DNA from: a virus
Strand: one strand, 5' to 3'
DNA length: 64,000 nucleotides
Virus record (IMG/VR): IMGVR_UViG_3300045988_125893
Shown piece by piece: positions 4,665 to 58,268 of the stretch. The stretch's first letter is position 1. The number at the start of each line of letters is the position of its first letter. Below the pieces are notes generated by a model, which searched no databases, was not told the origin of the DNA, and saw only the letters and a program-made list of their open reading frames with translations. The position numbers and the translations under genes were made by a program.

Positions 4665-5147
4665 ATGAAAGAGGAAGTAGAACGGATAAAGAAGTTGGTA
4701 GGCATAGATCATAATAGATGGGAGCAACCTTGTACATGTGATAAATGCAAGAACATGTGTAAGATTCCTTGTATTGGTACGCCAAAAGACATAGAGGCTA
4801 TCATAGATGCCGGATACGCTGATAGGTTAAAAGAAACAATGTGGATGGTAGGGTATCTTGCAGTGAAGGAAAAACCAATAGCGATGATCCAGCCGACAGA
4901 GAAAGACGGGTGGTGCGCATTCCGCCGGCCAGACGGTCTCTGCGAGCTGCATGACCGTGGACTAAAGCCGACCGAAGGAGTTCTGGCTTCCTGTAAGATG
5001 ATTGAAGAAGACAATGTTCCAACATACGAAACGTCTGTACTTAGAGCAGTGGCTAATGAGTGGGTTAAGGTGGAGAACTTTGGAGATATAATGAGGGTCG
5101 TTTTTAAATTTTTGCATGAAAATGAACGTAGAAAACAAATTAGATAA
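4665..5147 (+). CDS. hypothetical Cys-rich protein (CTCDKCKNMC...C motif, possible Fe/Zn chelating domain)
   Basis: ORF 160 aa; Cys cluster near N-terminus. Confidence 0.6.
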   Translation: MKEEVERIKKLVGIDHNRWEQPCTCDKCKNMCKIPCIGTPKDIEAIIDAGYADRLKETMWMVGYLAVKEKPIAMIQPTEKDGWCAFRRPDGLCELHDRGLKPTEGVLASCKMIEEDNVPTYETSVLRAVANEWVKVENFGDIMRVVFKFLHENERRKQIR

Positions 5148-5526
5148 AGTAGTTAAGATCCTAAAAGAAAAAGGATTTGTGGTATATAGAAAGGGCGGAA
5201 AGGAGCCGGGTGTATTTTACGCCAAAGAAGGTGACAGCCGGATAGGATTCGTTTATCCCAACAACGGATATATATATGATAGAATAAAAATGTGGTCTTT
5301 TTCAAGGATATATAAACCACATAAGAAAACCGGGTCTTCGTGTTTAATGAGCGTCAGCGACGAATTTACGATAGAGAATGCGATTAAGAACATAGAGGAT
5401 AGACTGTGGGTAAATTATGTAAAAGACGGTAACAGAAAACGACCAGAAGAATACAATAATATAAGAGAATTTGTTGGTAGCTTCACTAAATTCTACAACT
5501 CTGTAGAATTAGTTGAGGTTAAGTAG
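5116..5526 (+). CDS. hypothetical protein
   Basis: ORF 136 aa. Confidence 0.55.
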   Translation: MKMNVENKLDKVVKILKEKGFVVYRKGGKEPGVFYAKEGDSRIGFVYPNNGYIYDRIKMWSFSRIYKPHKKTGSSCLMSVSDEFTIENAIKNIEDRLWVNYVKDGNRKRPEEYNNIREFVGSFTKFYNSVELVEVK

Positions 5527-5547
5527 TTTTCCATGTAAGTTAGTTAC

Positions 5548-5583
5548 CGGCACTGGTCTGTGAAGATAGGTGTCGTTTTTTTT
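5548..5583 (+). terminator. stem-loop E3 (ccggcac/gtgtcgg, loop tggtctgtgaagatag) followed by T8
   Basis: 6-bp stem with one G-U pair, 16-nt conserved loop, tttttttt at 5576-5583. Confidence 0.7.
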
Positions 5584-5600
5584 AAGAAAGGAGGATAAAG

Positions 5601-5732
5601 ATGGAGAAAAGAGACAAGGAAATGCCTTACGAGGTAATCATACAGGAGAGAAACAAAGTGGATTTATACGGTAACGTAGTATATTATATCTATTGGTTTG
5701 ATAAATATGGGAACGATATTACAAACGAATGA
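5601..5732 (+). CDS. micro-ORF, 43 aa (MEKRDKEMPYEVIIQERNKVDLYGN...)
   Basis: ATG preceded by aaggaggataaag SD; not in track because <60 aa. Confidence 0.35.
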   Translation: MEKRDKEMPYEVIIQERNKVDLYGNVVYYIYWFDKYGNDITNE

Positions 5733-5939
5733 AAATTCTGGAGCAAGGGTCCGAAAAAGAAATATGATAGAGTCAATCGCTATTTAACGGATAGTTGGCT
5801 AAAGGAATACTGTAAGAACAACAATTTAAAAATAAGTAGAATAAAGGAATGAAGCCGGGAAAGCATGCTATGATAACAAACGAGTATGGTGTCTTGGATA
5901 TTATAAAAGAAAAATTTGACAACATAAATATAATGGAAT

Positions 5940-6308
5940 ATGGATCTAAATAAATTGTATAAAGAAATAGAAGAAGCGGAGGTCAATCTGAATGCAAAAA
6001 GATTAAAGTACATCAAAGAAGCATTAACGGAGAACGGTGGAAGCGTAAAGCTAAAATTTAAAGAGTTTAAAGAATGGCAAGAAGCTAATAACGTGTTTGA
6101 CTTTGATGATCAGTTTCCAGTGATAATAGAAATTGATGGAAATTCTATGTATTTAACGGAAGTGTATGTCAAAAAAAACGATTTTCGTGTAGTCATGCTG
6201 GATTATACTGATATGACTTTTTATGATTATAGCAATCCAGGGGAAAATGAACAGGTTGCTTATTTTATTAACTATTGCTTAAATCAAGACAAAGATGGGA
6301 AAGAGTAG
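5940..6308 (+). CDS. hypothetical protein
   Basis: ORF 122 aa. Confidence 0.55.
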   Translation: MDLNKLYKEIEEAEVNLNAKRLKYIKEALTENGGSVKLKFKEFKEWQEANNVFDFDDQFPVIIEIDGNSMYLTEVYVKKNDFRVVMLDYTDMTFYDYSNPGENEQVAYFINYCLNQDKDGKE

Positions 6309-6483
6309 AAAAGATTATGAGAAGTATCTTAACTCAATATCTCCAGATAGAGACGATGAGGCATGGATCATTGGAGGAAAGAACAGGTATTGCGGTAGAG
6401 AGAATTATGGCACTATGATCAAAAGGTATGATCCTATTGGTTTTAACGTGGGATACAGGGAGTGGGTGGAACAGCCAGAGTAA
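6295..6483 (+). CDS. hypothetical protein
   Basis: ORF 62 aa. Confidence 0.5.
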   Translation: MGKSRKDYEKYLNSISPDRDDEAWIIGGKNRYCGRENYGTMIKRYDPIGFNVGYREWVEQPE

Positions 6484-6485
6484 GG

Positions 6486-6539
6486 CGGAGCCCGCCCTGG
6501 CATGAGGTCAGCCTGGCTGTTTGTGGCCAGGCCCATATA
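6486..6539 (+). terminator. tandem GC hairpins (ggcgg-agc-ccgcc; gcctggc-tgtttgtg-gccaggc) with duplicated cctggc competing for one gccagg
   Basis: read directly; follows stop of 6295..6483. Confidence 0.5.
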
Positions 6540-6856
6540 TTAATCAGATAGTGAACAGCGAAAACAATATAAATATGAAAAATAAGTTAGTTCTTAATAG
6601 TGCAGAGGATGCTGAAATAATTTCAGTAAGATTAGATCCAGAGAGGTTTCCTATTGCATATGCAAACAAAGTAGAATGTTTGATGCTTTCCGGCTTAAGC
6701 GAAGAAGAAGCAAAGAAGGAGGCGATGATGCCAATAGACCTTGAATTGTATTATGAGGTAGGTGTAGGATTGATGGCCGTAGAGCCAGGGGCAGTAGAAT
6801 CTGGAACAATATACAGTCCATATACAAGAGAATTGTATGATAATGCAAAAGTTTGA
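6521..6856 (+). CDS. hypothetical protein (true start may be internal Met at ~6578)
   Basis: ORF 111 aa; first codons overlap the hairpin. Confidence 0.5.
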   Translation: MWPGPYINQIVNSENNINMKNKLVLNSAEDAEIISVRLDPERFPIAYANKVECLMLSGLSEEEAKKEAMMPIDLELYYEVGVGLMAVEPGAVESGTIYSPYTRELYDNAKV

Positions 6857-7332
6857 TAATTATGAGAGTAGAAGATTTAACTAAGTTTGAAGAAGAATGT
6901 CCCACCATAGTAGTATTTAATACATATATGGATATTAGGGTTCCACTAACGAAGAAATGGAAGAAAATCATTGACAAGAGAGAAGATAAGCCAAACACGT
7001 ATCATAATAATTTGATTAATTATATTTCAGAACAGATAGAGTTGTCCGGATTCAACATGAAAAGCGTCGGGAACCTATTAATAAAGAAAATAGTTTTCAA
7101 TAAAAACAATTACTACAGGTATAACAACATAGGAGGATTCCCTATAACTATCAACGATTTGGGATATTGGGATAAAAACAGAGTAAAGCTAAATGAAGAT
7201 TTTCACACTGTTAGGCTGTTTAATACGGTAAGTGTATATGGATTGATATTTGGATCCATAAAACAAAATAATTTCATTATGCTTGAAAACGATATAATGC
7301 AGATTAAGGTTGGCGGCATAACTTACATCTAA
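6853..7332 (+). CDS. hypothetical protein
   Basis: ORF 159 aa. Confidence 0.55.
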   Translation: MIIMRVEDLTKFEEECPTIVVFNTYMDIRVPLTKKWKKIIDKREDKPNTYHNNLINYISEQIELSGFNMKSVGNLLIKKIVFNKNNYYRYNNIGGFPITINDLGYWDKNRVKLNEDFHTVRLFNTVSVYGLIFGSIKQNNFIMLENDIMQIKVGGITYI

Positions 7333-52842: not shown

Positions 52843-53189
52843 ATGCCAAACATTTCTTTCAGAATACTGATCTTTATTCCGTATATCAATTTCATCTCAT
52901 CTCTATCATATACGTCAAAAAAGGATTTACTGGGGTCCTTTGGATTTGCGTTCAATTGAATTATGCAATTACCAGTATAAACCTTAAGCCTATAATTATC
53001 GGAGTATATATCCTGCATGGTCTCAAATGTCTCAATTAAATTTTCAACAAGAACTCTGTTAAATGAAAAAGATTCTTTGCCATCACCTTTAAATGTGATA
53101 TGATCTAAATTCTTGTTGTCAAATTCGTACTCTAACTGATTGCCGTCCATCATATCATAAAAGATTGACTTTTTGATTCTAAATCCCAT
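52833..53189 (-). CDS. hypothetical protein
   Basis: ORF 118 aa. Confidence 0.55.
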   Translation of the reverse strand: MGFRIKKSIFYDMMDGNQLEYEFDNKNLDHITFKGDGKESFSFNRVLVENLIETFETMQDIYSDNYRLKVYTGNCIIQLNANPKDPSKSFFDVYDRDEMKLIYGIKISILKEMFGICI

Positions 53190-53205
53190 ATTATTTTGTT
53201 TTTAG

Positions 53206-53511
53206 TTAATATAAATCTTCCGAATACAATTGTTCTCTAATGGCATTCCTATCTACTACCATTTCTTGATTATTGTTTCTAACAAGTTCAGATGCTTCCT
53301 CTCTTGTTAGAAACCGGTTCTTGCTTGTCAAAAATCCTTGAATACTACGGTTTTTATGGGCTATGCCATATGCAGCAAGTTGCGATATTATAGAACAGTG
53401 TCTCAATCCACAAAATACGGTTCCAGATGGTATATTTACGGGACCGTGAGGCTTGTTCTTGTGATCTTGAACCCATATAGCTGCGCATACAACAATTTCC
53501 TTATCGCACAT
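53206..53511 (-). CDS. hypothetical protein
   Basis: ORF 101 aa. Confidence 0.55.
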   Translation of the reverse strand: MCDKEIVVCAAIWVQDHKNKPHGPVNIPSGTVFCGLRHCSIISQLAAYGIAHKNRSIQGFLTSKNRFLTREEASELVRNNNQEMVVDRNAIREQLYSEDLY

Positions 53512-53514
53512 AAA

Positions 53515-53790
53515 TCAATAATTTAAAATACCGTTTTTACCAATATGCTTCTTTTCTTCTTCAGTAGGCCATTCTTTCTTGAACTTACCGTGCCACGTTC
53601 CAGGAACCACCACCAGTTGGTCTTCCTTATCATATTCAATAGCAGCACATTCAGAACAAAGAGGCTTGCCTTCATACCCTTTTAAAGATTCATCATAAAC
53701 ACGACCTATACAAGGTCTTATGAGAAACCAGTAATATGATGTGGCTGTATTATCTATACAGCCACACTTTGAACATACAAACAAACTCAT
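53515..53790 (-). CDS. hypothetical zinc-ribbon protein (CSKCG...CSEC)
   Basis: ORF 91 aa. Confidence 0.55.
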   Translation of the reverse strand: MSLFVCSKCGCIDNTATSYYWFLIRPCIGRVYDESLKGYEGKPLCSECAAIEYDKEDQLVVVPGTWHGKFKKEWPTEEEKKHIGKNGILNY

Positions 53791-54539
53791 CCCGCAATCT
53801 CCCAGTCATTAGACATAATATCATGTTCGGTTGGATTCCAATTTGATGCTACTTTTTGACCTGTATCTACCATCAATATATTTACGTCAGATTCTGCAAT
53901 AAACATACAGATATACTTTTTACCCCAATCGATTCTTTTTATCTTACGACCTAATTTAAGCTGTTCTAAAGCCTTTTCGAATGTCATGCCATGACGAGGC
54001 AGTTTGAGATACTTTTCAAGTCTGTCGGCGGCTTCATTTGGTGTATGGCCATCATATTCGAAAGCGGTTTCTCTTTCAGGAACATCAAACAAATCCCAGT
54101 ATTTGCTTTTATAGTGATTAGATACCTGACCGGTAGGCAGGATCGCCATCACAATAAACCAGTCATCAGAACCGAAGCATTTTTCTCCGTCGCTGTGTCT
54201 CCTTGATTTGCAAACTTCAACCTGTCCGTTTCTGGCTAATAGATTAAAGAAGGCAGCGTTGTACAACATGCGGTACCGATACAATTCATTGAAAGTATGG
54301 TATCCGTCAGAAACTTCTCCCATGTCTCCTGGTTCTGCTTTAGGTTCAGGATGATTAGGATAATAGTAGTCCACTGATGCTTCTAACACAGACTTGATGT
54401 GTTCTACTATCCTCGTAGCATCATCATGTCTTAAGAAATACTTGAATCCTTCAACGAATTTAATATCTTCATTGATTGTTGATTCGAACTCTTCTTTTGT
54501 CATTGCTCTAACTACATCTTTAAAATCTTTTAATTCCAT
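53787..54539 (-). CDS. fusion protein with C-terminal DUF2829 (Tad2-like, anti-Thoeris sponge family) domain
   Basis: C-terminal MTFEKALEQLKLGRKIKRIDWGKKYI ... NWNPTEHDIMSNDWEI matches remembered DUF2829 signature (MxFxEAL..LK.GKK..R..W ... W.PSQ.DLLAEDWEI); N-terminal 170 aa unknown. Confidence 0.65.
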   Translation of the reverse strand: MELKDFKDVVRAMTKEEFESTINEDIKFVEGFKYFLRHDDATRIVEHIKSVLEASVDYYYPNHPEPKAEPGDMGEVSDGYHTFNELYRYRMLYNAAFFNLLARNGQVEVCKSRRHSDGEKCFGSDDWFIVMAILPTGQVSNHYKSKYWDLFDVPERETAFEYDGHTPNEAADRLEKYLKLPRHGMTFEKALEQLKLGRKIKRIDWGKKYICMFIAESDVNILMVDTGQKVASNWNPTEHDIMSNDWEIAG

Positions 54540-54562
54540 AATTTGTTTTAAATTAGTTGTTA

Positions 54563-55195
54563 TTATGCTTTCTTTATCTTACAATACAAATCCCACAAAA
54601 ACTCAGCAGAAAAACCACCCCATGCATTATTCTGCCAAATATCTACTTTGTTAATAAACCAAGACCATGTAGGACCATCATATGAAGAATCAGATGATGA
54701 TCCCAATCCGATTTTCTCCATTTCATTCGCCACATCAGAATAAGGATCTAAATCGACTCCCCTAATCATGTTAATAATATCATCCTTGTCTAACGTAAAT
54801 TGAAACCGCTCCTCGTTAGTAGGCGGATCTTGATTCAATTTACCAGTCGCAAGCCATTCTCCATCATGATACAATTCGGCAAGTTTCTTTACCTTATTTT
54901 TAAGAAAAGAATACTCTTGTATGACTTCCATAAAGTCAGCTTCGTTAGCTTTACCCTCTATGAAGATAACGGTTTTGCTTCCAGGTCTATGATCGTCTAA
55001 GCTTGCCGGGATTCCCAATATCGTCCATCCTTTAAACTCAGCTATCTTAAAACGCATGACATCAAACACCTTATAGAAATCATCACAATCTACAGATTCT
55101 ATTACCTTAACATCCTCTTCCGTAAATTTACCTCGTATTGGAATAACGTGATGACCAGGGCAGCCATTGGTTCCGAAATATGCGATTCTAACCAT
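54563..55195 (-). CDS. hypothetical protein
   Basis: ORF 210 aa. Confidence 0.6.
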   Translation of the reverse strand: MVRIAYFGTNGCPGHHVIPIRGKFTEEDVKVIESVDCDDFYKVFDVMRFKIAEFKGWTILGIPASLDDHRPGSKTVIFIEGKANEADFMEVIQEYSFLKNKVKKLAELYHDGEWLATGKLNQDPPTNEERFQFTLDKDDIINMIRGVDLDPYSDVANEMEKIGLGSSSDSSYDGPTWSWFINKVDIWQNNAWGGFSAEFLWDLYCKIKKA

Positions 55196-55196
55196 A

Positions 55197-55400
55197 TTAT
55201 CTATAATATTTTAATTGTTCTGAAATCCTATATTTACTTATATCATCACACAAGTTACACCCTCCTGTGCATCCATAAATCGAACAATACGAGTCTCTTT
55301 CTGCCTTCGATCTGGATTGGAAATCTCTTACGGCTTTAATCCAGGTAGGAGAAACTATCTTACCAGAGAAAGAAGGTACGTTTAAAAGTAGTGTTTTCAT
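55197..55400 (-). CDS. hypothetical small protein with CxxxCxxC motif (CTGGCNLC)
   Basis: ORF 67 aa; separated from next gene by TAAtATG. Confidence 0.5.
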   Translation of the reverse strand: MKTLLLNVPSFSGKIVSPTWIKAVRDFQSRSKAERDSYCSIYGCTGGCNLCDDISKYRISEQLKYYR

Positions 55401-55615
55401 GATTTCGCTGAAACATTCGTATAATACGGTACATCTACCACATCTCTTCTATGAAGTTCCTTCTCAAAATAAGAAACCATATAGGTATTTTTACCTTCGT
55501 GATCAGGCCTGGGATCAAAGCATTCAAAAACGAATCTTGTTCTACCTTCAAGATGACCAAACATGAAAACAAACTCACCACCGTATCTTTTGTTAGCCAA
55601 TTCTTCTACTGTCAT
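55397..55615 (-). CDS. hypothetical protein
   Basis: ORF 72 aa. Confidence 0.5.
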   Translation of the reverse strand: MTVEELANKRYGGEFVFMFGHLEGRTRFVFECFDPRPDHEGKNTYMVSYFEKELHRRDVVDVPYYTNVSAKS

Positions 55616-55839
55616 AACCTGTCTCCTCCCAATCCCGAATTGATGCTAACGTACTTAACACGGACATCGTTTCCACGTCCAAGCTGACCCCAGCCGGGCG
55701 ATGGCGTTCCCTTTGCCGGAGCAGCGACAGCCCTAAGCCGAGGCCAGTCCTGATTTTGTCTTATGGCCTCCGCCTCTTTGTAATATTGGTTACACAGCTC
55801 TTGATCTTCGTACCCAATGTAATCTTCTTTATTTTCCAT
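55612..55839 (-). CDS. doubtful ORF; its 3' half is the GC-rich segment that may instead be the IS right end/omega RNA
   Basis: ORF 75 aa; second half Pro/Gly/Ala-rich from locally GC-rich DNA. Confidence 0.3.
   Translation of the reverse strand: MENKEDYIGYEDQELCNQYYKEAEAIRQNQDWPRLRAVAAPAKGTPSPGWGQLGRGNDVRVKYVSINSGLGGDRL
55665..55742 (-). ncRNA. candidate TnpB omega-RNA (reRNA) 3' scaffold / IS right end
   Basis: abrupt ~60% GC island in ~35% GC genome, 130-210 nt downstream of tnpB stop on same strand; position typical of IS605-family right end. Confidence 0.35.
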
Positions 55840-55872
55840 AGTTGGAAATTTTATAGTAAAACATAATAATTA

Positions 55873-57016
55873 CTACTCCATTATAGACGCTTCATTGAGA
55901 TTCGTAACCTCATCCCTCTGCATCCGATTATAGAGGATATCAACTCCTACCCTCTGTATGTTTATTGCAGCATTCAAATCTCTATCTATTTCAATGCTGC
56001 AATTTTCACACTTGAAAACTCTATCTGATAAAGTTAAGTCTTCTTTCTTCCATCCGCATTTGGAACACGTCTTTGATGATGGAAAAGAACCTGTCTATTA
56101 CGACAAGTTCTTTTCCATACCAATTACATTTGTATTCCAACATGCTTCTAAACATTGAGAAACTTGTATCGGATATAGCTTTAGCCAATTTGTGATTCGA
56201 TAACATTCCAGAAACATTTAAATCCTCTATACAAATAACATCATAATTATTTACAAGTGAAGTGGTAACATTATGAAGAAAGTTGTTTCTCTTATTAGCA
56301 ATCTTGTTATACAATCTTGCTATTTTTATTTTATTCTTTCTATGCCTGTTACTTCCTTTACTCTTTCTACTTAAATGTCTTTGTATTTTAGCTATTTCAG
56401 ATTGTTTCTCTCTGAAAAACTTGATATTATCAATCACAATTCCGTCAGACAATGTAGCAAAAGATTTCAATCCTAAATCTATACCAACCGTTTTACCAGT
56501 CTTTCCCTTGTGATGCATGACCGTATCTACGAGAATAGAAACAAAGTACTGATTGCAACAATTTTTAGATATCGTACATGACAGCATCTTTGAATTATTA
56601 GGTATATTCCTATCAATAGACATCTTAACCCATCCTATTTTCTCTAATCTTATCTTATTATCTTTTAATGAGAATTTTTGATTAGGTAATCTATAAGATT
56701 GGTTTCCAGATTTCTTTTTAAAAGAAGGTCTGCCTATTTTCTTCTTTCTTGTTTTAGAGAAAAACTGGTTGGTAATTTCTTGAAAATCCCTTATCTTTTG
56801 TTGTATAGCAGCGGCAGAGATTTCATTCAACCACGGCTTGTCAATTATTAAATCAGATTTAATAATGATTTTAGGTTTAGGATTACTATCCTTATCATAA
56901 GAATTGAAAGATTCGACATTAGCATTCCAAATTACACGAATACATCCAAAAGTCTTAGAAAGCAACCCCTTCTGAGACTTATTAGGATATATTCTGTATT
57001 TGAAAGCTTTATGCAT
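55873..57016 (-). pseudogene. tnpB: IS200/IS605-family tnpB (RNA-guided nuclease) disrupted by +1 frameshift in a T-run
   Basis: main frame MHKAFKYRIYPNK...VVIDRFF then SIIKDVF...*; alternate frame just downstream reads [42 protein letters not shown] (zinc finger plus RuvC-III); shift at ttcttttcc (~56088-56096). Confidence 0.8.
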
Positions 57017-57113
57017 CGTTTAATTATTTAAAAGCAAATATAGTTACAATTCTATGATTATACAATATTCATAAATTAATTAGATTTAAAATAATACAAT
57101 GTATATTAAAATA

Positions 57114-57150
57114 AAAACCCGATACGTTAAAGCATATCGGGTTTGGCATC
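57114..57150 (-). terminator. hairpin aaacccgata-cgttaaagca-tatcgggttt followed on minus strand by tttttatttt
   Basis: read directly; also plausible IS left-end hairpin. Confidence 0.6.
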
Positions 57151-57165
57151 AAGCATAAAACATAG

Positions 57166-57348
57166 TCAGATCTTAGGTAAAGATTCAAGATACTTTTTAA
57201 TGTCTTTATATTTAGGATCTTTATCTATTCTGTTTTTCAGTTCATGCAATGCCGAGTCCATAACTGTATTCGGTACGCCAATCAATTCTCCTATTAAATA
57301 CAAGGGGGTTTTATTCGATTTAGATTCGTATGCCATATTCATATCCAA
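57166..57348 (-). CDS. hypothetical small protein
   Basis: ORF 60 aa ending just before terminator. Confidence 0.4.
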   Translation of the reverse strand: MDMNMAYESKSNKTPLYLIGELIGVPNTVMDSALHELKNRIDKDPKYKDIKKYLESLPKI

Positions 57349-57509
57349 AAAAAAGTTATGTAAAACAAACCGGCCACGGGTATTCTATCGCCCGCCGACC
57401 GGTATCATATTTTTTTATTCTTTTTATTCCCTTTCGGGAAAAACGGGAATGCGGGAATCATATTTTTTACTATGGCTCCCGCACCGCCGGAAGGACTTGG
57501 GTCTGGATC

Positions 57510-57803
57510 TCAGGTCAGATCCTTCCAGCTTATTTTTTCGCCGAGGTAATCTTGCACGGCAAGCCATCTTATAAAGGCTACTCCTTCGGGGGCATCCGGA
57601 TCATTCAAATACATTAACGTAGCTTTCACCAGCTCGTTCTCACATTTGAAGATCTTCGGGAAGCCATCCGAATAGTACATTGCAAAGACATATTGGACAT
57701 CGCCCCATGTCGCTTTATCCGGCTTCTTCGCTCCGCACTTTTCAAAAATATCTTTTATCTCCGACTGCTTCCAGATCCTTTTAGATCCATCGACGTTAAC
57801 CAT
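57510..57803 (-). CDS. hypothetical protein
   Basis: ORF 97 aa. Confidence 0.55.
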   Translation of the reverse strand: MVNVDGSKRIWKQSEIKDIFEKCGAKKPDKATWGDVQYVFAMYYSDGFPKIFKCENELVKATLMYLNDPDAPEGVAFIRWLAVQDYLGEKISWKDLT

Positions 57804-57896: not shown

Positions 57897-58268
57897 TCAA
57901 TAAGAACGACCACGACCTCTTCCCCTACCTCTACGCATCTGGGGACCATCACCGTAGTATCTGTCGTCTCCATAATAATCGGTCGGGTAAGATTCGTAAC
58001 CCATCCTCCGGTATTCCCGGTCCTCCATTTCATGACGGCGTTCGCGTTCTTCGAGTCTTCTTTCTCTTTCTTCCAACTCGTTTTCACGTTCTTCCATCTC
58101 TTTCATTTTTTCATGCATACCATAATGGTCATAAGGAGGAAGGAATCCATGTCCGTAACCCATGTACGTCCCATCAGAACGACGACTACGACCTCTGCCT
58201 CGTCTATCTTCTATCTCGTCATATCCAGGATATTCTCTTTGTCCTGAATTTAAATCATATACTATCAT
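57897..58268 (-). CDS. low-complexity Arg/Glu/Gly-rich protein (RGRGRG tracts, ERERRLEERERR repeats)
   Basis: ORF 123 aa. Confidence 0.5.
   Translation of the reverse strand: MIVYDLNSGQREYPGYDEIEDRRGRGRSRRSDGTYMGYGHGFLPPYDHYGMHEKMKEMEERENELEERERRLEERERRHEMEDREYRRMGYESYPTDYYGDDRYYGDGPQMRRGRGRGRGRSY

Follow-up and report, generated by a model that had tools for sequence, protein, structure and literature searches.

What kind of mobile element carries the split tnpB gene of the IMG/VR virus record IMGVR_UViG_3300045988_125893, and does the split reflect an artefact, a relic or a gene in use? The stretch analysed here (the window) comprises 64,000 nucleotides (nt) of this record, and the gene lies on its minus strand between positions 55873 and 57016. 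Most likely, the window holds an IS607-derived element that has lost its tnpA by deletion and whose tnpB was recently inactivated by a template switch, and this element resides in the genome of an epsilon crAss-like phage. The original prediction, made from the letters of the window, had already proposed a TnpB element without tnpA that is inserted in a phage genome and whose tnpB is split by a lesion of +1 nt, and that proposal holds. The open reading frames (ORFs) of the window agree with its statement that no tnpA is adjacent; neither a tnpA nor a second copy of the element was found within the 64-kb window. The parts of the element are as follows.

55838..57062, minus strand: whole inserted element, approximately 1.22 kb, with left-end remnant, tnpA 3' remnant, tnpB, predicted omega-RNA scaffold and right end; its left border is placed to within a few nt
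57035..57062, minus strand: probable left-end remnant, including a Bacteroidota-type -7 box, TATATTTG, at 57035..57042 (TAnnTTTG)
57017..57034, minus strand: probable tnpA 3' remnant of about 17 nt, which aligns to the last tnpA codons of four relatives (L016, L018, L019 and L032)
56021..57016, minus strand: tnpB ORF as it stands, 331 codons, with native residues 1-310 followed by Y311F, 20 out-of-frame residues and a stop
55873..56082, minus strand: 3' part of tnpB, out of frame, with the zinc finger C317/C320/C336/C339, RuvC-III D346 and a C-terminal tail that overlaps the omega RNA
55838..55955, minus strand: predicted omega (right-end) RNA scaffold, with five helices, ending in ...CAAC-TA-T
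55841 and 55840..55838, minus strand: right end of the element, ...TTTCCAAC (55841) and then TA-T (55840..55838), conserved across contexts

The gene content of the two frames leaves little doubt about what was broken. The 331-amino-acid (aa) ORF at 56021..57016 starts with MHKAFKYRIYPNKSQ, which is the TnpB N-terminus, and the native part of its product covers WED/REC, RuvC-I D180 and RuvC-II E264. The zinc finger (with its CENC) and RuvC-III are encoded in the next frame, and both readings confirm what the original prediction had said of these ORFs. If the TTTT run at 56083..56086 is shortened by one base, both frames fuse into a 380-aa ORF, giving a tnpB of 55873..57016 on the minus strand. 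In this repaired protein, HTH_OrfB_IS605, OrfB_IS605 and Cas12f1-like_TNB all exceed their Pfam cut-offs, and the match to NCBIfam guided_TnpB reaches 322.6 bits (cut-off 100). The closest solved natural structure is that of ISDra2 TnpB (8exa, 8h1j; E 4.6e-64 over residues 2-356), with which the repaired protein shares the domain order, the D-E-D RuvC triad and the CxxC...CxxC zinc finger. A single continuous ORF with the triad and the zinc finger is found in the sister alleles P0001-P0120 and is absent from the window. Since the frameshift leaves the zinc finger and D346 outside the reading frame, and the earliest start codon of their frame (55977) lies downstream of both, the window has no active nuclease unless the frameshift is recoded.

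Comparison with intact sister alleles defined the lesion. Contigs of about 150 kb yielded more than 100 intact 380-aa relatives (81-99% identity). Residue 311 (F for Y) is the only one at which the repaired protein departs from the database protein P0001, and the contigs that encode P0001 (L002-L004) are 99.2% identical to the window over 4.6 kb, with one indel. Within the element, the window and the intact sister alleles are 99.9% identical, and positions 56084 and 56087 are the only ones to differ. Where the intact alleles have GGTT-TTATCC (F-Y-P), the window has GGTTCTTTTCC, with a C gained at 56087 and A>T at 56084, both within 4 nt; written out at the lesion site, the intact form is GGTTTTATCC and the frameshift form GGTTCTTTTCC. 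The single extra T proposed originally describes the difference from the more distant F-F-P alleles and fails against the nearest intact ones.

At least 24 contigs (44 index blocks), which stem from unrelated samples and from both ENA and Logan assemblies, encode the exact 331-aa truncated product. Contigs L005-L010 match the window at 99.9-100% over 1.9 kb, and the IMG/VR contig L020/L068 also encodes the truncated product. An identical truncation on so many independent contigs excludes a sequencing or assembly error, and the lesion is a genuine heritable mutation. Thus, among the three options that the original prediction had left side by side (pseudogene, sequencing indel or slippage), a genuine mutation is retained and the sequencing error is discarded. 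The remainder of the element is the same as in the intact alleles, which indicates a very recent knockout and not an old relic; the further inactivating lesions that were to mark a dead relic do not occur.

The sequence around the lesion also suggests how it arose, through the following repeat.

56079..56118, minus strand: inverted repeat that the lesion renders near-perfect, ATGGAAAAGAACTTGTC / loop GTAATA / GACAGGTTCTTTTCCAT; a mutational footprint and not a functional part

In the intact allele, the 5' arm ATGGAAAAGAACTTGTC belongs to an imperfect inverted repeat whose 3' arm is GACAGGTT-TTATCCAT; in the window, this 3' arm has become GACAGGTTCTTTTCCAT. Both changes (+C and A>T) are the complement of the 5' arm, and they render the inverted repeat near-perfect. 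The predicted DNA hairpin reaches -14.6 kcal/mol in the frameshift allele, compared to -6.8 in the intact one, and a self-match of the inverted repeat was seen in frameshift alleles only. The clustering of an insertion and a substitution that perfect a quasipalindrome is the signature of template switching (PMC7202029, PMC8604942). Because both changes copy the opposite arm of the imperfect repeat, we infer a single event, and the pattern points to one template-switch mutation. As in the published cases, a clustered multi-base change perfects an inverted repeat and causes a frameshift; what those studies describe is a mutational mechanism rather than a genetic element, and here it is read from the pattern. 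We also considered this hairpin as part of the omega RNA and rejected it, as it lies approximately 125 nt upstream of the conserved scaffold and its arms are far less complementary in the diverged relative L016 (alignment judged by eye).

A structured RNA could be mapped at the 3' end of the gene. Ten non-identical copies were aligned over window positions 55968..55838, and their RNAalifold consensus holds 30 pairs in five helices, 11 with compensatory double changes (for example, GGGAU/AUCUC versus GCAGC/GCUGC and GCACC/GGUGU, and AGAGG/CCUCU versus AGCCG/CGGCU). In the window, these helices are 55955-55948/55939-55932, 55925-55920/55890-55885, 55916-55909/55904-55897, 55883-55880/55849-55846 and 55876-55871/55858-55853. 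Paired cells amounted to 96%, against 32-51% when the partners were slid by 1-3 columns, and none of 500 shuffles attained the observed score. A covariance model built from eight relatives, with the window left out, matches 55968..55838 on the minus strand at 135.7 bits (E 2.8e-33) and gives weak matches at the 3' ends of distant TnpB genes. The same model has no match in the GC-rich segment at 55665..55742, nor in the four tnpB-less loci searched. Rfam, searched permissively over 55000..57600 and at gathering thresholds across the whole window, returned no matching family; its weak RsaE and ncr1015 matches were simply the lesion hairpin.

Elements in other genomic contexts lose similarity to the window at 55838-55827, which places the right end just 32 nt beyond the tnpB stop. 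In all contexts the right end reads ...AAATTTnCAAC followed by TA-T, a pattern conserved in eight contexts. By its conserved fold, the RNA that overlaps the tnpB 3' end and extends to the right end is the predicted omega RNA of this element. Both ends and the omega-RNA region are unchanged in the frameshift lineage. The guide is predicted to come from the flank immediately 3' of the conserved right end, within a phage gene.

55818..55837, minus strand: predicted guide portion, flanking phage DNA GGAAAATAAAGAAGATTACA, made up of the opening codons of the 75-aa ORF; the start is placed to within about 3 nt and the length is an estimate
55612..55839, minus strand: 75-aa phage ORF, outside the element, which holds the GC-rich segment 55665..55742 and is a homologue of crAssE-Sib WOZ57313.1

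This guide region is local flank and varies with each insertion context. The start of the guide was placed by analogy to the IS607 element ISXfa1, in which a nucleotide of the right flank belongs to the RNA scaffold (PMC10711439). Against the predicted guide, the 74 relatives that lack tnpB (described below) show a single mismatch, a synonymous A/G difference near position 10. In all occupied genomes examined, the sequence at the start of the 75-aa ORF is ATGGAAAATAAAGAAG (window 55841), and the tnpB-less ones listed (L050 and others) have ...AATAAGGAAG; this synonymous difference within the predicted guide-matching site could reflect linkage or target escape. In L011-L015, in which tnpB is intact, a TA-to-TA deletion equivalent to window 55813..55838 extends from the right-end TA to a TA 26 nt downstream. 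It removes the start codon and the first eight codons of the 75-aa ORF, and the predicted guide would change. The idea that the element always lands directly before a start codon was rejected: the TATG past the right end opens a long ORF in L018 as it does in the window, but one of only 11-12 codons in L016 and L032, and L188 has no ATG.

The GC-rich segment itself had been put forward in the original prediction as a candidate omega RNA and right end. With the end of the element at about 55841/55838, the segment lies 100-175 nt outside it, and the covariance model matches 55968..55838 instead. The segment has 65% GC and encodes PRLRAVAAPAKGTPSPGWGQLGRGND, a Pro/Ala/Gly-rich stretch that accounts for its composition. 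Coding in homologues without tnpB, which was to count against the proposed role, is what we found: the 75-aa ORF is intact in 73 of the 74 tnpB-less IMG/VR loci, where the variable sites at codon positions 1, 2 and 3 number 9, 11 and 36. The GC-rich segment is part of an ordinary phage gene and has no role in the element.

The phage that carries the element is a crAss-like phage of the human gut. Its nearest relative in GenBank is crAssE-Sib (OR575929.1; approximately 90% identity), an epsilon crAss-like phage (Epsilonunovirus). This genome lacks the insertion, and window 55377..55840 aligns there at 88.6%. Upstream of the site lies the following feature.

57115..57144, minus strand: intrinsic terminator of the upstream 60-aa gene, in flanking phage DNA and conserved in tnpB-less relatives

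The element occupies a spacer between two genes of this epsilon crAss-like phage. Among the 80 IMG/VR loci that share this terminator, 74 lack tnpB, so the insertion is the minority state. TnpB-family 'transposase' genes have been reported in some Epsilonunovirus genomes only, with two in crAssE-Sib (PMC11054128). That report and the window share the phage genus and the presence of TnpB-family genes, whereas the genome described there is without this insertion and the paper is silent on IS607 ancestry, omega RNA, site polymorphism and the frameshift allele.

We looked for a bacterial or archaeal source with peptide patterns, which detect close relatives only, in one genome per species for 185,579 species, and no relative above 50% identity was found; GenBank phages held no relative above 45% identity. 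Meanwhile, close relatives occupy at least eight different sites on IMG/VR contigs of 60-150 kb. With no close bacterial relative and many sites on phage contigs, the lineage looks phage-resident and appears to circulate among human-gut crAss-like phages. TnpB genes overall occur in 356 GenBank phage records. Being common in phages and already noted in epsilon crAss-like ones, they leave existing knowledge unchanged by the present finding.

Based on these observations, we propose the following course of events. In the intact form, the putative left-end promoter would drive tnpB, as the family suggests. The transcript's 3' end (55955..55838) would form the omega-RNA scaffold, with the guide supplied by the flanking bases past the right end. 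TnpB and its omega RNA would then cut element-free genomes at this site, and repair from an element-bearing genome would retain or spread the element, in the manner of a homing endonuclease. TnpB is known to act as a homing or retention nuclease (PMC10055086, PMC10690162). In the lineage of the window, tnpB would have been knocked out recently by one template switch (+C and A>T, net +1 nt) in the imperfect inverted repeat, and the broken allele would have been carried along as its phage lineage prospered. The copy in the window encodes a dead nuclease and travels as a passenger.

The frequency of the broken allele speaks against such a passive course: it appears about as common in databases as its nearest intact sisters, with at least 24 contigs compared to about 21 for P0001-P0012. 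This is compatible with hitch-hiking, but also with selection. One could imagine that this IS607/TnpB lineage of crAss-like phages acts as an RNA-guided weapon of homing or competition between co-infecting phages, and that the common frameshift allele is a selected nuclease-off state (a TldR-like binder or an escape from self-cutting) rather than the product of neutral decay. We regard this as improbable. A narrower version, to which we give marginally less credit, sees the truncated TnpB as an RNA-guided DNA binder, nuclease-dead and newly domesticated, or supposes that the element is kept for its omega RNA; either would regulate the 75-aa gene or interfere with related phages. Indeed, only the zinc finger and RuvC-III are lost, while WED/REC, RuvC-I/II, the omega RNA and the putative left-end promoter are untouched, and the allele is at least as frequent as the closest intact sisters. 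Yet divergence since the lesion is zero, leaving no sign of selection on the truncated form, whose product ends in 20 out-of-frame residues, and the predicted guide is merely the flank of the element itself, as in mobile copies. Moreover, sister copies in two other phage lineages have decayed by unrelated internal deletions of tnpB (window 55925..56201 in L021 and roughly window 55986..56214 in L022). These independent losses suggest that the element decays repeatedly, as is expected of a dispensable selfish element.

The known TldRs, RNA-guided repressors found in prophages that derive from TnpB and are nuclease-dead (PMC13418256), resemble the window in being phage-borne TnpB relatives without RuvC activity that have retained their guide RNA. 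They differ in forming a diverged and conserved clade, across which the loss of RuvC is kept and whose guides are retargeted to host promoters. In the window, we found a single recent frameshift, in one near-clonal lineage, with a guide predicted from the own flank of the element.

The family of the element also required a decision, as the original prediction had labelled it IS605. In L016, L017/L018 and L171-L180, whose TnpB is 66-86% identical, a 189-aa tnpA ORF is located directly upstream of tnpB, with its stop overlapping the tnpB ATG. The TnpA of these relatives scores 179.8 bits against NCBIfam transpos_IS607 (cut-off 110) and matches the Pfam Resolvase family (catalytic domain). That relatives at 81-86% aa identity carry an IS607-type serine recombinase overlapping the tnpB start overturns the IS605 label. 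No Y1 (HUH) TnpA was found in the window or beside any relative; each partner found is a serine recombinase. Copies with TnpB only (the window, L019/L022/L023 and L032) keep varying lengths of the last tnpA codons, those of the window being probable, and three differing deletions (window type, L019 and L032) indicate that tnpA was lost independently at least three times. Considering the serine-recombinase tnpA of the relatives and the probable 3' remnant in the window, the copy studied here is, as judged by comparison, IS607-derived and not IS605, non-autonomous, and with its tnpA deleted.

The two ends of the element also bear on this assignment. Window 57035..57062 aligns to the sequence just 5' of the tnpA ATG in L016, L018, L019 and L032; BLAST similarity to tnpA-bearing relatives begins at 57031, and elements elsewhere diverge from the window at 57031/57011. 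The -7 box of this remnant is a putative promoter; a sigma-70 promoter scan was uninformative, with counts equal to those of shuffles. In all contexts examined the left junction is G|TA and the right one AAC|TA|T, TA being frequent in this AT-rich DNA. L172 has an additional TA at the junction, and in L011 a TA-to-TA deletion adjoins the right end. IS607 recombines at matching dinucleotides (PMC10711439), which the same TA at both junctions would fit. The relatives at 81-86% identity follow the standard arrangement of IS607 elements such as ISXfa1 (PMC10711439): their TnpA, of 189 aa, has MerR helix-turn-helix and resolvase domains, and its stop overlaps the tnpB ATG. The element itself apparently shares with this family one dinucleotide at both junctions, and it has a structured RNA overlapping the 3' end of tnpB and reaching the right end. 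In contrast to that family, the window has lost its tnpA, its junction dinucleotide is apparently TA and not the GG of IS607/ISXfa1, its TnpB falls under the NCBI IS607_TnpB cut-off, and its lineage was found on phage contigs only.

Some of the observations on this element weigh against the account given here. The window TnpB scores 372.9 bits against NCBIfam IS200_TnpB and 208.8 against IS607_TnpB, both below the cut-offs. The similarity of the left-end remnant is marginal (z 3.4 versus L177), and this remnant is for that reason called probable. The 1220 bp of window 55841..57060 correspond to 22 nt in crAssE-Sib and in the tnpB-less loci; as these 22 nt are missing from the occupied genomes, the two states do not differ by a simple insertion. 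An adjacent TA-to-TA deletion may explain the 22 nt. A left end approximately 45 nt longer, with the tnpB-less genomes as deletion remnants, was considered and rejected, since the similarity was no better than that of dinucleotide shuffles and the covariance model gave no sign of an RNA remnant in that sequence. Clean pairs of empty and occupied sites were also sought for other contexts: the L171 flank pattern gave occupied loci only, and the L016 flank gave many empty loci in which the downstream region is replaced, so that no exact boundary could be set.

A TnpB-only element of the IS200/IS605 type, with a Y1 transposase, can draw on the Pfam name OrfB_IS605, on the higher IS200_TnpB score and on ISDra2 TnpB, the closest solved natural structure, which comes from an IS200/IS605 element. 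Similar to ISDra2, the element has its predicted omega RNA within the 3' end of the gene, with a guide taken from the flank. Nevertheless, both NCBIfam scores are below cut-off, every tnpA-bearing relative found (L016-L018 and L171-L180) has the serine recombinase with its overlapping stop, TnpB-only copies retain (the window probably) the last codons of that gene, and the TA seen at both junctions is what IS607 recombination would predict. Other differences from ISDra2 are the type of the partner transposase, an RNA that no Rfam family matches and, in the window, a gene truncated before the zinc finger. We therefore consider an IS200/IS605 origin very unlikely and the IS607 derivation preferable.

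Two further explanations concern the frameshift. Full-length TnpB might be produced by programmed +1 frameshifting, in which the P-site tRNA-Phe slips from UUU to UUU on UUU_U and CCA is read next, giving ...DRFFPSSK... (the context of this candidate site is GACAGGUUCUUUUCCAUC). The slip is sterically possible, would restore the exact F-F-P of the natural homologues P0053 and P0120, and would concern a common allele. The site, however, occurs in a single near-clonal lineage, and every other homologue (81% to 99.7%) is in frame. Its A site holds neither a stop nor an obviously rare codon, no downstream stimulator is recognisable, and the site falls within the hairpin, in the 3' arm, instead of preceding it. 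Template switching explains the two-base change without selection, and we hold recoding to be as poorly placed as the IS200/IS605 origin. The weakest alternative, a sequencing or assembly error in a gene that is intact in the real phage, might appeal to the short T-run within hairpin-forming sequence and to the intact gene of phages that are 99.9% identical across the element, and is practically dismissed by the recurrence of the exact product across different studies and assemblers, by the near-identity of L005-L010 and the positive IMG/VR contig, and by a two-change event that is not a homopolymer length error.

For annotation, the analysis thus assigns an IS607-derived element, maps its predicted omega RNA and returns the GC-rich ORF to the phage. 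It also reveals a natural polymorphism in very abundant human-gut phages, with empty, intact, frameshifted, internally deleted and tnpA-bearing states, that could help to show whether TnpB homing takes place between phage genomes. P0001, the intact sister allele, and the mapped RNA are a ready candidate for testing of the target-adjacent motif and of cleavage, and the lesion is a clean natural example of what appears to be a quasipalindrome template-switch mutation.

The surroundings of the element hold other variable genes. On the minus strand, window 53787..54539 holds an ORF of 250 aa whose product matches a WDGH domain (E 1.4e-36) and a Tad2-like domain of Thoeris anti-defence (E 2.4e-12). 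In view of that domain, of its location 1.3 kb from the tnpB element and of the variability of this stretch among sister phages, the ORF is a candidate anti-defence gene. Near the element lies a second presence/absence polymorphism: an 805-bp segment (54572..55376), with most of a 210-aa ORF and a 67-aa ORF, neither with a Pfam match, is missing from crAssE-Sib and from the intact-tnpB sisters L002/L003 and present in L005, L006 and L010. Further away, a 123-aa ORF on the minus strand (57897..58268) displays a very biased composition, with an E/R-rich repeat (EERENELEERERRLEERERRHEMEDREYRR) and an RGRGRGRGRSY tail, and has no Pfam match. No tRNA genes are present in the window.

Other insertions were observed in related genomes. 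L008, a phage with the frameshift allele, encodes at 5089..6329 a second and unrelated TnpB of 379 aa that is 31% identical to the first. This gene replaces window 52977..54928 (approximately 1.95 kb), the Tad2-like gene included, so that two TnpB elements are 1.2 kb apart. In L010, an HNH endonuclease gene (RRXRR and HNH; 6526..6996) is located downstream in the same island and represents another mobile-nuclease insertion. Finally, a 243-kb IMG/VR viral contig carries three TnpB copies (L025, L026 and L027). The first of them (L025, 1925..5558) is 54% identical and lies between ORFs resembling the N- and C-terminal parts of a terminase large subunit, and it may be an intron-like (IStron-type) insertion.

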